This document shows, piece by piece, positions 2,617-8,085 of a DNA stretch of 9,822 nt (position 1 is its first letter; each line of letters begins with the position of its first letter). The translations under genes were made by a program, and so were the position numbers. Below the pieces are notes generated by a model. That model searched no databases. It saw only the letters and a program-made list of their open reading frames with translations, and was not told where the DNA came from. The stretch is from a virus (taxonomy: Duplodnaviria > Heunggongvirae > Uroviricota > Caudoviricetes). The stretch lies in the IMG/VR virus record IMGVR_UViG_3300011952_000030; one strand, given 5' to 3'.

Positions 2617-3603
2617 TTAGGCCAGCACACCAATTGCCAGCGCGCGATCGATAAATCGAAAAATCAGCTCCAGTTGGGAGCCATACTTCTCTTCAAATGC
2701 CACGGTATCCGTATGCAACTCGTCGTGATGCTTTCTGCACAAAGGCAACACAAAGAGATCATGTGCTTTGGTTCCCATTCCGCCCTGCCCGTGACCAATC
2801 AGATGATGCGGATCGTCGGCTGGCATCCCGCAGCAAGCACACGGCTGTGTCTTAACCCAGCGTGTGTATTTCTCCTTAACCCAACGGTGACGTTTAGGCA
2901 GCTTCATGAAAGATTCCGGAGACTCTGGATCAACGGTGATGCTTACCACCGTCTTTTCCTGTGATGGGTTTTGTTGCTGGTGGGCGTGAGGCAACGGTGC
3001 AAGATTTTTTGTGCGCTGTTTCAATATGCTGGTGGCGGTCTGCTCTCCCGGTACGATGTCGCTTTCGCGGTACACCGAGCAGATTTTTTCCGCTGGTAAT
3101 CCCAGCGAGCGACGTAATACCGCTTCCGGTAGCGCGTCCGCCAGCTGATTGCGGACCGCCCACCAGGATAATTCAGCCAGAGATAATTCACGCTCCTTCG
3201 TACCGCTTATTGCGTGACCGATGACGTCAATCATCCATGCTGCCAGGTTTTGATGAGCAAGTTGCTCGAGTGATTCGGATGTCTGGTCACGCAGTTGGTT
3301 GTCGCAGTGCCAGCACAACACCATTGCGCCGGTACCATATCGGTGAATAACGGTTTCNNNNNNNNNNNNNNNNNNNNNNNNNNNNNNNNNNNNNNNNNNN
3401 NNNNNNNNNNNNNNNNNNNNNNNNNNNNNNNNNNNNNNNNNNNNNNNNNNNNNNNNNNNNNNNNNNNGCAGATTACGCATGCTTTTCGGTTCCGGCTCCA
3501 CCAGTACCCGGGTATTGTGGAATACCGGCATGGATTCACGGCCCGGCTTAACGACCACCAGCCCGAGTTCCGGTACCAGAACAGGTCGAAGTAATACCCG
3601 CAC
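2617..3603 (-). CDS. Nin-region protein with C-terminal HNH-like zinc-finger motif (DUF968 / YdfU-like); reading frame passes through a 110-nt N-run so the product is incomplete
   Basis: C-terminus [18 protein letters not shown]...[10 protein letters not shown] has the CxxC...HH...CxxHH spacing typical of HNH/DUF968 proteins found just upstream of Q in Qin-type prophages. ATG 3603 sits 1 nt after the upstream gene stop. Residues within 3358-3467 are unknown. Confidence 0.55.
3358..3467. other. Run of 110 N (masked or unresolved sequence) inside the DUF968-like gene
   Basis: Directly visible. The flanking reading frame is conserved across it. Confidence 0.95.
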
Positions 3604-4417: not shown

Positions 4418-4573
4418 TTACTCCTCAGGTTCGTAAGCTGTGAAGACAGCGACCTCCGTCTGGCCGGTTCGGATTCGTACCTCGCAGAGGTCTTTCCTCG
4501 TTACCAGTGCCGTCACTATGACGGTTAAACAGATGACGATCAGGGCGATTAACATCGCCTTTTGCTGCTTCAT
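4418..4573 (-). CDS. hokD: Hok/Gef-family type I toxin (HokD/RelF-like), 51 aa from ATG 4573; the ORF track's longer 70-aa form is an in-frame upstream extension
   Basis: MKQQKAMLIALIVICLTVIVTALVTRKDLCEVRIRTGQTEVAVFTAYEPEE matches E. coli K-12 HokD as I recall it: single TM helix plus conserved Cys and C-terminal periplasmic tail. A perfect 9-bp stem-loop (4389-4410) lies just 3' of the stop. Confidence 0.85.
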   Translation of the reverse strand: MKQQKAMLIALIVICLTVIVTALVTRKDLCEVRIRTGQTEVAVFTAYEPEE

Positions 4574-4951
4574 AGCCTGCTTCTCCTTGCCTTTCGGCAC
4601 GTAAGAGGCTAACCTACATGTGTCTAGCATGAAATTGGCCTCAGATTAATGTTAAGCGTCTTGCAGGACGCGTAATGTTAACTGGGGCTTTTCTCTATCT
4701 GCCGTTGGTGTTCATGCCCGAGGCAGATAGCCTCAAGCACCCGCAGGCATTCTACTTAACTCCCGTTATCTCGCCAATATGAAATCAGTCAGAAAGGCGA
4801 TCCATAAGAATAACAGAACAATAAATTACCCGCACCACCGCAATAGTCAGCGAACATTTAAGAACCAACATGACAGCCTCCCACATTTAAAGTACGTATG
4901 TTCTAATAAATATAAATGGCATGATTCTGCGAAATACTTACATAAGCAATT

Positions 4952-5018: not shown

Positions 5019-6743
5019 TTAAAGCCTAAAAAACTTATCGTCCTCCCCAAGCTCAAGCACAACACTATTATTGATGAAGTCTTGATCAATATTCTCCAAC
5101 TTGTCTTTAAGAATAGCCAATATATATTGACCATTAATCCCCGAAGCTATCTCGAATAACTTATTTATTTGATTTACATGAATTGCCTCAATTCCATCAT
5201 GAGCTATAAAACGTGGTGTTCTGGCTTCTAAAGACTCCTGGACAGATAAATAGGCAAAATCTAAAGAGGCAACCTGGGCTTTCTTTTTTCCTTCTCCCTG
5301 ATTACCTGATGTGAGCAAAGTTCCTAAAGGTTCAATGGTAAAAACGAAAGAACCGGAGGAATCTTTATAGGAAAGAATATATTCATCCTGATATAATTTT
5401 TTAGTATATAAAGAAAAATAGGAATTGAATAGCGCAAGACGTTTGTTAAAATCGTCAAGTTTAGATTTTAATCTATCTGACACATCATTAAACTTTGCTT
5501 TCAGTATATTAAAGTTGTTCTCCATCTCTTGGATTTGAAGTAGTCCAGCTTCAAGCCCACCTTTTTCTTCAAATAATGAATTTAATTTTTTTTGCATTAT
5601 TTGCAGGTCTGCCAATGTCCCATGCGAAGACAAACTCTTTAAAAGCTCTGATTCTTGAGTCAATAAGTTATTTAGTTCATCTTTATATTTGGAAATTTCT
5701 TGCAGCACTGGCTGCATTTGTTTTCTAATAAACTCAGCTTTTTTTACAAGCATTTTATTATGAAACGAAAGTAGCTCAGTAAACTCTTTGTTTAAGTTAC
5801 CTAACCGATCAGTTGCTTCTAAGTACAACTTCTGTAGATCTAGTGTATTTATATTTTCATGACTTTTTTCCAGATCTAGTATAGCCTTATCGTTTAATTT
5901 TTGCTTAAACTCCAAAGATGATAGTGTGATAGAAACTTCACTAATTTTAATTTTTAACTCATTTAACTCAGCAAGCATATCATTATAAGAGTCTGCCACT
6001 TGAAAATTAGAAATTAACTCTTCTTGTGCTATAATATCTCTATTTATAATTGCAATAGCTTGTTCCAAAGCATTCTTTGAGCGATGGCGAGTAATTACTT
6101 CATAATCGGATTTCGCCAGTTTATAGGCTTTAGTCACTGACTGTTTTTCATCCAGAATCTGTGAGTTACCGAACCCAAACATAAACAGATTTAACGTTTC
6201 ATATTGTGTATTAGAACCCATTTTTATCGTTTTTAATGCGTTCGACATCTTGTCATGCGTATTTCGAATAACACGTCCCATAATCTCTCGTATGGTCGGT
6301 TTTATCGCGGAATCAAGATATAATGTTCTTTTTAAAGCCTCGTTGAAATCTTTAGCCTTCGTATAGGACTCTTCATTTATTGAGGCTATAACCTTCGTTT
6401 TATTAGTCTCAGATGTAATTTTACGCTTAATTTTTATTACTGGTGCAGTTTTATTATTCAAATCTTTTGTGAGAATTAAACAAAACTCAATCTCGTTCTC
6501 TATCAAATAATTTTTTATAACCGAATTTTCTTTCTTGAATTCAGGATCGGTATAAAAATTCAGTTGTTCTGCTCCAAAACAAAAATCTAAAGCTCTTAAT
6601 ACAGTAGTTTTTCCCACACCATTTCCAGTTTGCTCTTTGCTGGAGGTGTTTCGGTCAATAATCAAATTAACGCCAATGTGAAATTCGATATCACGAATCA
6701 CTCCAAGCCTGAAAGAACTGACTATTAGCCGTTTCAAAAACAT
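5019..6743 (-). CDS. P-loop ABC/SMC-like ATPase with long central coiled coil, 574 aa; last gene of the AT-rich operon
   Basis: N-terminal head typical of SMC/RecF/OLD-type ABC ATPases, with Walker A GNGVGKTT (aa 40-47, nt 6603-6626). Lys/Glu/Leu-rich heptad region at about aa 230-470. Degenerate signature-like TSGNQGEG (aa 479-485) and Walker-B-like FIAHD (aa 512-516, nt 5196-5210). ATG 6743 overlaps the upstream gene by 10 nt. Confidence 0.8.
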   Translation of the reverse strand: MFLKRLIVSSFRLGVIRDIEFHIGVNLIIDRNTSSKEQTGNGVGKTTVLRALDFCFGAEQLNFYTDPEFKKENSVIKNYLIENEIEFCLILTKDLNNKTAPVIKIKRKITSETNKTKVIASINEESYTKAKDFNEALKRTLYLDSAIKPTIREIMGRVIRNTHDKMSNALKTIKMGSNTQYETLNLFMFGFGNSQILDEKQSVTKAYKLAKSDYEVITRHRSKNALEQAIAIINRDIIAQEELISNFQVADSYNDMLAELNELKIKISEVSITLSSLEFKQKLNDKAILDLEKSHENINTLDLQKLYLEATDRLGNLNKEFTELLSFHNKMLVKKAEFIRKQMQPVLQEISKYKDELNNLLTQESELLKSLSSHGTLADLQIMQKKLNSLFEEKGGLEAGLLQIQEMENNFNILKAKFNDVSDRLKSKLDDFNKRLALFNSYFSLYTKKLYQDEYILSYKDSSGSFVFTIEPLGTLLTSGNQGEGKKKAQVASLDFAYLSVQESLEARTPRFIAHDGIEAIHVNQINKLFEIASGINGQYILAILKDKLENIDQDFINNSVVLELGEDDKFFRL

Positions 6744-6970
6744 AATATCAAATCTCCATTTTCGTTAGCATCAACCAGGCCTAATAAATATAGCCAATTT
6801 AAAGTGTAAATATATTGCGTGAATGAAGAGTTGTTATTTTTAGATTTGAATTCATTATACAAGTCTATAATATCAACATACGAATAAGCATTTGAACTCA
6901 TGCATTCTAATAACCGAGCTCCCAGGTAATACAAGGTTTGGCTTGGTTTTGTTACATCAGAGATAATCAT
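6734..6970 (-). CDS. Small 78-aa protein, third gene of the AT-rich operon; possible adaptor or winged-helix-like component
   Basis: ATG 6970 overlaps the upstream stop in an ATGA arrangement; its own stop overlaps the ATPase start. Codon usage matches the neighbours. No motif recognised. Confidence 0.6.
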   Translation of the reverse strand: MIISDVTKPSQTLYYLGARLLECMSSNAYSYVDIIDLYNEFKSKNNNSSFTQYIYTLNWLYLLGLVDANENGDLILCF

Positions 6971-7563
6971 ATTGGTTTTTCCAGAATCTTACACTCTACG
7001 AATGCATGATAAACGATAAAAGAAGCATGGCATTCGATTTCTTCGCTTGTGTAATTCATTGCCATAAGAGAATTTAAGCATTTCTTAATGATGTGCTCTA
7101 TTACACTGTCTATTATCCAATCTGCAAACTCTCTTACCAATTGAATCTTTAAATTATTCCGTTCCTGAGCATCCTTGCAGCTCTTATACGCTTCTCTATG
7201 TTTAAGCAATAAATCTCCTTGACAATCAAGATATCGTGAATTGATGCTTTTCAGTGCCGTTTCCTTAGCAGTAGGCATACTTTCATTTAATGTTTCATAC
7301 GCTTTATCTATCATCGAAGAATATAGATAGAACCCTTCAATACGTTCTCTATGTTTTATAACATCATTGAAGTCTATTTTATTCTCAATATCATATGGCT
7401 CGTAGTCATTGTTTGTACGAGGATCAATAACATTCGAATCAACTAAAATACCAACAAGATCCATAAAAATCGATGGAGACTTTATAATATCAACAGAGTT
7501 AGAATCGACAACCACCTGCACATTACGTGAGTAATTCCCTGACCTTTGAGTAACACCAACCAT
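6967..7563 (-). CDS. 198-aa soluble protein of unknown function, second gene of the AT-rich operon
   Basis: ATG 7563 lies 2 nt after the upstream TGA; its stop overlaps the next ATG. Acidic, with five Cys but no recognisable nuclease or protease motif. Confidence 0.65.
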   Translation of the reverse strand: MVGVTQRSGNYSRNVQVVVDSNSVDIIKSPSIFMDLVGILVDSNVIDPRTNNDYEPYDIENKIDFNDVIKHRERIEGFYLYSSMIDKAYETLNESMPTAKETALKSINSRYLDCQGDLLLKHREAYKSCKDAQERNNLKIQLVREFADWIIDSVIEHIIKKCLNSLMAMNYTSEEIECHASFIVYHAFVECKILEKPI

Positions 7564-7565
7564 GA

Positions 7566-7811
7566 TCAGCCTCGCTTGTTTTCATTATTTCCAAAAACGA
7601 CCGTCTGATTATTTTTTGAATGGCTACCGCTTTTTTGAATTATTGTATGCCCTGAACTTTTTTTATTAACAATAAATGTACCTAAAAATGTTACAAGAAA
7701 GCTACCAGAAGTGAACATCAATGGCACACTATTGAAGTGATATGCAGCAAAGCCAGCGCAAGCAACGAATGTCAAAGAAAATATTCTAATCATAATTCGG
7801 ATCATAGCCAC
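7566..7811 (-). CDS. Small two-TM membrane protein (81 aa from GTG 7811, or 79 aa from ATG 7805), first gene of the AT-rich operon
   Basis: Two hydrophobic helices (about aa 8-27 and 30-48) followed by a polar Lys/Ser/Asn-rich tail. AGGA lies 8 nt upstream of ATG 7805. Confidence 0.55.
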   Translation of the reverse strand: MAMIRIMIRIFSLTFVACAGFAAYHFNSVPLMFTSGSFLVTFLGTFIVNKKSSGHTIIQKSGSHSKNNQTVVFGNNENKRG

Positions 7812-7899
7812 ATCCTGTAAGTACTGTTGTCATCTTTTAGTGATTCTTGAATCCCATACTATACAAAAGCTTATCCATCTTTTGTACAAGCTTCCGCTT

Positions 7900-8028: not shown

Positions 8029-8085
8029 NNNNNNNNNNNNNNNNNNNNNNNNNNNNNNNNNNNNNNNNNNNNNNNNNNNNNNNNN
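8029..8085. other. Run of 57 N (masked or unresolved sequence) upstream of the AT-rich operon
   Basis: Directly visible. Flanked by ...TAGTGCAT and TGCATAGG... Confidence 0.95.

Follow-up and report, generated by a model that had tools for sequence, protein, structure and literature searches.

Lamassu is one of the most widespread families of bacterial defense systems. The systems contain LmuA, which has an N-terminal effector domain and a C-terminal docking domain, the middle component LmuC, and LmuB, an SMC-like ATPase. The effector position is N-terminal to the docking domain of LmuA, and ABC-3C systems are part of the same superfamily (PMC10586767). The C-terminal domain (CTD) of LmuA is an oligomerization domain that is sequestered by two LmuB protomers and LmuC; sensing of DNA ends liberates the domain, and its oligomerization activates the effector (bioRxiv 10.1101/2025.03.14.643221). 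The short Lamassu effectors include HNH and SMEK domains. In addition, more than 100 sequences from more than 40 species make up Clade O, which has a truncated LmuA, an intact LmuC and a short LmuB, and in which the effector domain has seemingly been lost; the model of liberation and oligomerization leaves this effector-less clade unexplained (bioRxiv 10.1101/2025.04.02.646746). We analyzed a stretch of 9,822 nucleotides (nt) of viral DNA (IMG/VR record IMGVR_UViG_3300011952_000030; the window, below) that contains a cassette of four open reading frames (ORFs), the first of which, ORF1, encodes a small predicted membrane protein. Our reading, to which we give a probability of roughly 0.55, is that ORF1 is the detached effector of a prophage-borne, four-gene Lamassu-family defense cassette, and that an amyloid-like motif couples it to the CTD10 protein encoded by the next gene.

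Systems that use matching motifs are the other close relatives. In the bacterial NLR/Bell systems (BASS1-10) and the fungal NWD2/HET-S system, as in our cassette, a motif at the C-terminus of the effector recurs at the N-terminus of the receptor, collinear genes overlap or are separated by tiny gaps, N, Q, G and I are frequent in the motifs whereas P and L are scarce, fused all-in-one relatives exist, and similarity within pairs is greater than that between pairs (bioRxiv 10.1101/2020.01.06.895854). The NLR/Bell systems differ from ours in that the receptor is a STAND NTPase of the NACHT or NB-ARC type, the motifs are about 25 amino acids (aa) long, and the hosts are mostly multicellular Actinobacteria and Cyanobacteria. 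Comparison of all-in-one proteins with two-gene versions that share a terminal motif has been a route to the discovery of amyloid-signaling pairs in both fungi and bacteria, and the operational criteria for BASS motifs include enrichment of Q, N, G, V and I and depletion of K, P and L (bioRxiv 10.1101/2020.01.06.895854). Bab/Agp (BASS11) is a validated abortive infection system of an E. coli prophage with a shared amyloid motif of roughly 20 aa (bioRxiv 10.1101/2024.11.07.622273). Like our cassette, it has a small membrane-targeting protein with a C-terminal motif of roughly 20 aa and an adjacent downstream gene that opens with the same motif; its location is a defense hotspot of prophages, and oligomerization of the sensor is the proposed trigger. 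In contrast, its executioner is a Bell-type helical bundle and not a bare protein of one or two helices, and Bab/Agp is experimentally proven, whereas the present cassette is known from sequence alone. The motif partner in our cassette is a CTD10 adaptor, neither an NLR/STAND protein as in BASS1-10 nor a TGP protein as in BASS11, and in Pfam the motif matched none of the described families (RHIM, PP, HET-s or sigma). What is apparently new here is the combination of a Lamassu sensor module with a relay to an effector through a shared motif; both principles were known singly.

The cassette lies in a block of about 33% GC, from position 5019 to about 8000, with flanks of 45-52% GC. The block contains four tightly packed ORFs, all on the minus strand and beginning with ORF1:

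Positions 7566 to 7805, minus strand: ORF1, a membrane mini-protein of 79 aa and the proposed detached effector; stop codon TGA at 7566-7568 (homologs, PGAP annotation, ratio of nonsynonymous to synonymous substitution rates [dN/dS], AlphaFold2 model).
Positions 6967 to 7563, minus strand: ORF2, 198 aa, an N-terminal motif followed by CTD10, an "effector-less LmuA" (Pfam CTD10, AlphaFold2, junction sequence).
Positions 6734 to 6970, minus strand: ORF3, the MC6 middle component, equivalent to LmuC (Pfam MC6, 1.6e-13, 50.8 bits against a cut-off of 27.2).
Positions 5019 to 6743, minus strand: ORF4, an SMC-like ABC ATPase of 574 aa (DUF2326), equivalent to LmuB (Pfam, PADLOC, PHROG and motifs).

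We found that three of the four defining sequence features place the cassette in the ABC-3C/Lamassu family; the one that fails is the fused effector domain. The order of genes is that of Lamassu/ABC-3C systems (LmuA-LmuC-LmuB; DdmABC of Vibrio cholerae): a protein with the CTD in the position of the effector, a middle component, and an SMC-like ABC ATPase. CTD10, MC6 and DUF2326 are all ABC-3C families in Pfam, and, as with Lamassu, the cassette is found in defense hotspots of mobile elements. The ABC-3C classification used by Pfam is reportedly that of Krishnan et al. 2020. ORF2 matched CTD10 over residues 36-195 (1.6e-10, 42.1 bits against a cut-off of 28.1), and it overlaps ORF3 by 4 nt. 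ORF4 matched DUF2326 (4.2e-14, 52.9 bits against a cut-off of 28.7) and, over residues 17-569, the PADLOC candidate system PDC-M68B (1.3e-41). It has a P-loop (GNGVGKT), a Walker B motif (FIAHDG) and a central coiled coil, a region that matches coiled-coil proteins only. ORF4 also matches phrog_5467 (2e-29, function unknown); that is, relatives have already been catalogued in phage and prophage genomes.

The LmuA-position protein is where the cassette departs from Lamassu. In the AlphaFold2 model of ORF2, residues 1-27 are disordered and the protein is all-alpha from residue 30, and neither Pfam nor AlphaFold2 gave an enzymatic or any other domain in residues 1-27. ORF2 therefore consists of a disordered 27-aa segment with the motif and CTD10 only, and ORF2 through ORF4 are a three-gene set with no recognizable effector. 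The extra gene upstream, ORF1, is a second difference from Lamassu. Others are the weak matches of ORF4 to hidden Markov models of LmuB and a CTD10 that has no structural match to solved LmuA. The truncated LmuA, intact LmuC and short LmuB described for Clade O suggest that Clade O is the class of CTD10 systems to which our cassette belongs, and that its effector was detached rather than lost; we equate the two from the described architecture. The description of Clade O mentions neither an upstream membrane gene nor a shared motif (bioRxiv 10.1101/2025.04.02.646746). Our literature searches found no paper on the function of DUF2326 or CTD10, and none that links ABC-3C, Lamassu, DUF2326 or CTD10 to membrane mini-proteins or amyloid-type motifs; Krishnan et al. 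2020 may mention the upstream gene.

ORF1 is virtually certain to be a real gene, and this is supported directly by comparative data. Its homologs form about 35 clusters (78-86 aa, 33-95% identity) across the Enterobacterales, always directly upstream of a CTD10 gene and in varied genomic contexts. PGAP annotates the 79-aa form as a hypothetical protein (WP_001367360.1), and dN/dS was 0.19 in comparison with a relative that is 83% identical. The sequence-only reading of this DNA had described an ORF from 7566 to 7811 on the minus strand with two hydrophobic segments, and these are present as described, both in Kyte-Doolittle profiles and in the AlphaFold2 model. It had allowed for a start at either GTG 7811 or ATG 7805. 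We dropped the GTG: the N-termini of all homologs (M-[I/A]-[R/K]) line up with the ATG, PGAP gives the 79-aa form, and the ribosome binding site is spaced for the ATG:

Positions 7813 to 7816, minus strand: Shine-Dalgarno sequence AGGA, 7 nt upstream of ATG 7805 and 1 nt from GTG 7811.

It is conceivable that ORF1 is a membrane protein of the prophage that has nothing to do with the cassette (a holin or pinholin, a superinfection exclusion protein or a HokD-like type I toxin), or that there is no gene here. In size and in having two helices it resembles class II holins, the surrounding DNA is a prophage with hokD 400 bp past the cassette, and no family library recognizes it: searches of Pfam, NCBIfam, PADLOC and PHROGs with ORF1 gave no match. 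The lack of a PHROG match also counts against a holin or pinholin. Relatives of ORF1 accompany CTD10, MC6 and DUF2326 in non-prophage islands, satellites, a Clostridium plasmid and marine metagenomes; their neighbors are CTD10, MC6 and the ATPase at every locus, and never an endolysin. Translational coupling to ORF2, a motif that co-varies with that of ORF2, and purifying selection argue further against such a protein. The comparative data already refute this explanation, which we consider exceedingly improbable, and they directly support membership of ORF1 in the cassette system, of which we are nearly as sure as of the gene itself. The earlier reading had also likened ORF1 to the small effectors of abortive infection and toxin-antitoxin systems. 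The toxin-antitoxin half of that analogy found no support, as ORF1 matched no known toxin family in Pfam, NCBIfam or PADLOC.

ORF1 is predicted to form a membrane hairpin, in which two helices place the N-terminus and the C-terminus in the cytoplasm. AlphaFold2, run with an alignment of 30 sequences, gave helices at residues 2-24 and 27-42 (pLDDT >90), followed by a tail of low confidence. The Kyte-Doolittle maxima over 19 residues were 1.83 and 1.65, slightly above the usual threshold of 1.6, and insertion into the membrane is predicted but marginal.

Positions 7734 to 7802, minus strand: helix 1, residues 2-24, IRIMIRIFSLTFVACAGFAAYHF, whose N-terminus is basic (R3, R7); Kyte-Doolittle 1.83, AlphaFold2 helix 2-24.
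Positions 7668 to 7727, minus strand: helix 2, residues 27-46, VPLMFTSGSFLVTFLGTFIV; Kyte-Doolittle 1.65, AlphaFold2 helix 27-42.

Helix 2 carries the invariant residues F40, G42 and T43, and the helix is followed by N-K-K. The cytoplasmic location of the tail is supported directly by the distribution of charge in relatives with one helix: among 24 of these, there are 4 K and R residues on the N-terminal flank of the helix and 62 on the C-terminal flank, and the tail of the mini-protein is therefore cytoplasmic. The tail is also the most conserved part of ORF1. It contains five of the ten invariant positions (Q57, G60, S63, N65 and Q67), and dN/dS was 0.12 in the tail compared to 0.23 in the helices. 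ORF1 had been described as ending in a polar tail. A flexible, low-confidence tail is indeed there, but with half of the invariant columns and the lowest dN/dS it is not merely a polar tail.

We found that the tail of ORF1 and the N-terminus of ORF2 have the same motif:

Positions 7584 to 7643, minus strand: ORF1 tail motif, residues 55-74, IIQKSGSHSKNNQTVVFGNN, with the core Q-x2-G-x2-S-x-N-x-Q (invariant residues; pair similarity).
Positions 7495 to 7554, minus strand: ORF2 N-terminal motif, residues 4-23, VTQRSGNYSRNVQVVVDSNS, with conserved Q6, G9, S12, N14 and Q16.

The spacing of the core is identical in the two proteins. Over 20 aa, the alignment has 8-9 identities (z = 6.5-7.0), and none of 2000 shuffled sequences scored as high. 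We found the same at eight enterobacterial loci, where the observed score between tail and N-terminus was reached by only 0-5 of 2000 composition-preserving shuffles each. Partners also have residues in common that are specific to their locus: STNTQ in Pectobacterium betavasculorum, and NNY or NNF in the group of Pectobacterium odoriferum, Enterobacter and Phaseolibacter ("Pseudomonas flectens"). Both motif regions are disordered in AlphaFold2 monomer models.

The motif match is kept at the level of protein, because synonymous sites have diverged. Third codon positions within the motif match at 8 of 20 codons in the window, and at a distant locus (L015) at 7 of 19 codons, where 14 of 19 residues are identical. 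Recent duplication or gene conversion as the origin of the motif was ruled out by this divergence of third codon positions. Overlapping reading frames were ruled out as well; separate segments of DNA encode the two motifs.

The tail motif is absent from one natural variant, which can be traced to a homopolymer in ORF1:

Positions 7658 to 7664, minus strand: a run of seven A residues in codons K48-K49-S50 of ORF1.

A variant of 54 aa (P0007, ending in NKKVQGIQ and a stop codon), present in three contigs, is the exact product of loss of one A from this run, and its tail motif is gone entirely. Two other variants are a deletion form of 71 aa (P0008) and a form of 101 aa (P0036) that looks like read-through past the stop codon. 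These variants may reflect recurrent inactivation of a costly gene, or switching based on slippage.

The arrangement in the window is widespread. When we searched 1.84 billion representative sequences with a CTD10 profile, we obtained 502 clusters (at 50% identity). Nearly all of these proteins are 173-224 aa long, and they begin with an N/Q/G-rich extension of 20-45 aa that comes in many "flavors". We took 90 loci from metagenomes and viral contigs; the analysis covered 87 loci, a number that includes one further, distant metagenomic locus (L015). The 87 loci were distributed as follows:

Split class, 54 of 87 loci: upstream of CTD10, an ORF in the same direction encodes 46-112 aa with one or two hydrophobic helices.
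Fused class, 19 of 87 loci: HNH joined N-terminally to CTD10, with no upstream mini-ORF.
Unresolved class, 14 of 87 loci: mostly contig ends.

In one large branch of the family (54/87 loci), the gene for the mini-protein is an obligatory fourth member. Downstream, the loci are uniform: an MC6-like ORF followed CTD10 in all 76 of 76 loci, and the ATPase came next in 63 of 64. Fusions of SMEK_N and of Mrr_cat to CTD10 were also found. A search for proteins in which the two helices are joined to CTD10 (2TM-CTD10) gave no such fusion; the relatives of ORF1 are all 78-86 aa except for the 101-aa P0036.

We found the mini-ORF ahead of the CTD10 gene in Pectobacterium, Chimaeribacter, Enterobacter and Salmonella, among others, as well as on a plasmid of Clostridium botulinum. 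The contexts include P4-like satellites, neighborhoods of P2 gpA, integrase islands and marine metagenomes. In Phaseolibacter ("Pseudomonas") flectens (L003 and L008), a P4-like satellite carries the four-gene cassette, with the integrase on one side and psu/delta on the other, and in three other contigs (L004, L013 and L014) it adjoins a P2-type gpA replication gene. These P4 and P2 sites are said to be known defense hotspots (Rousset et al. 2022). In L015, a SIR2_2-family gene (1593-2678) lies about 190 nt upstream of the membrane mini-gene, which encodes 47 aa; the C-terminus of the SIR2_2-family protein does not have the shared motif. This gene may be a defense gene that is merely a neighbor, or it may encode a second effector. 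One locus, L074, is an exception. The small ORF (72-245) ahead of its CTD10 ORF (359-715) is rich in Cys and Lys (CxxC...C...C, similar to a zinc ribbon) and is not hydrophobic, and no shared motif was evident between these two ORFs.

We compared motifs across the family using 36 non-redundant split pairs from metagenomes, viral contigs and genomes of several phyla, with the N-terminal window anchored on the stop codon of the upstream ORF. The mean motif score was 48.8 for cognate pairs and 23.6 +/- 8.3 for non-cognate pairs. The sum for the cognate pairs had a z of 16.8, and none of 20,000 random re-pairings equaled it. The cognate partner was the single best match in 19 of 36 rows and 22 of 36 columns. 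That is, the sequence of the motif varies between systems, yet the partners match within a gene pair. Examples are L015 (NKQSIKGDDNQQAGGDIKN and NKQNIKGNNNQQAGGNITN), L100 (NNHGNNSGIQIGNNNGDIN and NNHGNNDGLQIGVNKGPIN), L101 (ENSGDNKGTMSGIITGGV and DNSGDNTGTIAGAIEGNV) and the Clostridium botulinum plasmid (HIGNSGNNKGIMGGIITGGVN and TLDNSGDNTGTMAGNIEGDAIN). The motif has a median length of 20 aa; it ends about 4 aa from the C-terminus of the mini-protein and starts about 4 aa past the N-terminus of the CTD10 protein. It is enriched in N (4.2-fold), G (1.9-fold), Q (1.7-fold) and I (1.6-fold), and L and P are nearly absent. Gaps between the mini-ORF and the CTD10 gene are mostly -20 to +9 nt (36 clusters). 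Operational criteria for amyloid-signaling pairs are a motif of 15 aa or more that is common to the effector C-terminus and the partner N-terminus, adjacent collinear genes that overlap or lie within 10 bp of each other, and all-in-one relatives (bioRxiv 10.1101/2020.01.06.895854). The window agrees with these: its motif alignment spans 20 aa, its gap is 2 nt, and HNH-, SMEK- and Mrr-CTD10 are all-in-one relatives. The shared motif and its co-variation within pairs are direct observations, and it is very probable that the motif mediates the coupling of ORF1 to CTD10.

The coupling need not be amyloid-like. It is possible that ORF1 has the same role as effector and that the motif is an ordinary, stable docking element (a beta-zipper or hairpin), with ORF1 permanently bound to CTD10 and activation releasing or clustering the complex. 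The motif is short and, in the tails, rich in lysine, it matches no known amyloid-motif family, the beta-bridges in AlphaFold2 models are weak, and the co-variation would fit any direct physical contact equally well. However, heterotypic interfaces co-vary toward complementary residues, whereas here the two partners have the same sequence, with N, Q, G and S at fixed positions. Convergence on the same, rather than a complementary, sequence is what would be expected of in-register parallel beta stacking. In addition, apart from the content of K and V, the layout and composition are those of the operational definition of BASS motifs (bioRxiv 10.1101/2020.01.06.895854). We regard simple docking as unlikely. 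Templating by the motif that is genuinely amyloid-like, which our reading of the cassette includes, is itself a tentative proposal with the odds somewhat against it.

Two independent considerations point to ORF1 as the effector. First, effectors sit at the N-terminus of CTD10, where sister systems have nuclease domains (HNH, Mrr and SMEK). Second, the shared motif couples the detached protein to that same position. The equivalence in position of ORF1 and the fused nucleases is supported directly by the survey, and we think that ORF1 is probably the effector. The sequence-only reading had proposed a small membrane effector next to an ATPase that acts as sensor or activator. This is now favored by the identity of the cassette, by the mini-protein being an obligatory fourth gene, and by a position equivalent to that of the nucleases. 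The ATPase and ORF1 do belong to the same cassette, but the proposed arrangement has to be modified: the ATPase does not act directly, and the CTD10 adaptor and the MC6 protein intervene.

ORF1 might instead serve as an anchor that tethers the complex of CTD10, MC6 and ATPase to the inner membrane, for example near sites of phage DNA entry; the toxic or restrictive activity would then belong to the ATPase complex or to some host factor. Conservation across the family is compatible with this: only a hydrophobic helix and the motif are retained, the number of helices varies (one in 25 mini-protein clusters, two in 11), the sequence of the helices is poorly conserved, and no pore-forming signature could be demonstrated. 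On the other hand, ORF1 occupies the exact position of the nuclease domains in the sister systems, and the HNH-fused sisters have the same MC6 and ATPase and no anchor, indicating that localization is not a general requirement. A mere anchor would also leave the split systems with no effector at all. We consider this role very unlikely.

There is precedent for membrane effectors this small. In CBASS (2TM/Cap15-type), Pycsar (PycTM), type III CRISPR (Cam1) and pinholins such as S21, short proteins of one or two helices depolarize the inner membrane by regulated oligomerization, and infection is aborted. They differ from ORF1 in that a nucleotide-binding domain fused to them, or the timing of the holin, controls gating, and not a peptide motif in common with a separate adaptor.

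By analogy to the described systems, the detached effector could work as follows. At rest, CTD10 would be sequestered by the ATPase and MC6, as in the solved Lamassu CTD7 systems. The ATPase would sense a DNA structure specific to infection, and ATP-driven opening would free the CTD10 protein. The freed CTD10 proteins would then oligomerize, bringing their N-terminal motifs into register; these steps, too, are modeled on Lamassu CTD7. An oligomerizing sensor has likewise been proposed to start nucleation in amyloid signaling. The aligned motifs may then seed a beta assembly, in register and amyloid-like, to which the identical motifs on the tails of the mini-proteins are drawn, similar to Bab/Agp and NLR/Bell. 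Finally, judging from the shape of the protein, the clustered hairpins might cause a membrane lesion, depolarization and aborted infection.

The polarity could also be reversed. ORF1 might be intrinsically toxic and the motif of CTD10 might cap its tail much as an antitoxin would for as long as the complex holds CTD10; sensing would remove or degrade the cap, and ORF1 would self-assemble through its own tails. The motif is homotypic, so that ORF1 tails could associate with each other without CTD10. ORF1 and ORF2 are translationally coupled, with a gap of 2 nt and a GAGG 7 nt ahead of the ATG of ORF2, within the end of ORF1, and such coupling is found in many toxin-antitoxin pairs. Natural variants of ORF1 with no tail or with a deletion (P0007 and P0008) are what one expects of a costly gene. 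In contrast, the solved resting complex of Lamassu has no contacts with the N-terminal effector, and activation is through oligomerization of the CTD (bioRxiv 10.1101/2025.03.14.643221). Moreover, the versions with fused HNH or SMEK require positive activation and not uncapping. Our own data are compatible with either polarity, and we consider capping quite unlikely.

Several results weigh against our reading of ORF1 as an effector coupled through an amyloid-like motif. In about 45% of clusters the cognate partner was not the best match, although many of these clusters share a motif flavor. K is enriched 1.5-fold in the tails rather than depleted, V (0.9-fold) is not enriched, and the median of 20 aa is short compared to the about 25 aa of typical BASS motifs. 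No Pfam amyloid-motif family matched ORF1 or the two distant mini-proteins searched with it, and in monomer models AlphaFold2 gave only low-confidence beta-bridges in the tail of ORF1 (residues 57-58 and 64-65). The hydrophobicity of the helices is moderate; the position-independent sum on the Hessa scale was about +2.5 for both segments. The PADLOC match of ORF4 is to a candidate system alone, and the models of validated LmuB matched weakly (6e-4). A Foldseek search of the PDB, including the solved Lamassu complexes, with the CTD10 model gave no significant match, and a phmmer search of PDB sequences with the ORF4 ATPase gave only coiled-coil noise and no solved relative. The Lamassu mechanism is thus transferable by family-level analogy only, because CTD10 has no detectable structural relative among solved structures and the ATPase has no sequence relative in the PDB. 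In addition, our literature searches found no experimental evidence of defense, toxicity, membrane localization or fibrils for this or any other CTD10 system.

If ORF1 is the detached effector, then the missing effector of Clade O is a separate membrane mini-gene upstream, usually unannotated or called "hypothetical", and a matching peptide ties its product to the truncated LmuA. The logic of matching motifs (amyloid signaling) in NLR/Bell and Bab/Agp would extend to a different class of sensor, and the CTD10 systems would supply dozens of orthogonal motif flavors. Defense-system finders that count three genes would miss the executioner; the four-gene cassette of E. coli is 2.8 kb. It is even possible, although we find it doubtful, that a large branch of Lamassu/ABC-3C that crosses phyla (most of the about 500 CTD10 clusters) has kept its effector, and that the signal is relayed by prion-like amyloid templating: the motifs of oligomerized CTD10 would nucleate a cross-beta fold, which would convert the identical tails of membrane mini-proteins of 45-110 aa into a clustered, pore-forming state. 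If so, this would be the first amyloid signaling downstream of an SMC-type DNA sensor, and the mini-proteins would be the smallest amyloid-gated executioners of cell death known.

The window is a lambdoid prophage of E. coli of the Qin/Rac type. Its prophage genes include those for the Q antiterminator, a DUF968/YdfU protein, rem, hokD, a DUF977 protein, and genes of the replication module. DNA of the cassette was also found in 17 of 5426 complete E. coli genomes; it was chromosomal every time, and RefSeq gives the same family names. In contrast, a megablast search with the cassette and a tblastn search with ORF2 found no match in a phage collection of 50,697 GenBank phage records, but predicted prophages within the collection of viral contigs do contain the cassette. 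Two runs of masked N are present in the window. One (3358-3467, 110 bases) interrupts the DUF968/YdfU-like ORF. The other (8029-8085, 57 bases) lies upstream of the cassette, in the intergenic region in which its promoter would be expected; a scan for promoters and terminators, incomplete there because of the masking, called no promoter upstream of ORF1 and performed no better than it did on shuffled sequences.

The low-GC cassette is located between hokD and the DUF977 and replication genes. The type I toxin gene hokD (4418-4630, minus strand; Pfam HOK_GEF 3e-23) is 400 bp beyond the cassette. In the Qin prophage of K-12, hokD is adjoined by relBE, and the site therefore looks like a prophage hotspot for defense or toxin-antitoxin cargo. 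The gene for the Q antiterminator, at the edge of the prophage late region, has two neighbors at 390-2066 that look like cargo or "moron" genes: one of the YbgA family, on the minus strand, and one for a lipocalin (Blc-like), on the plus strand.

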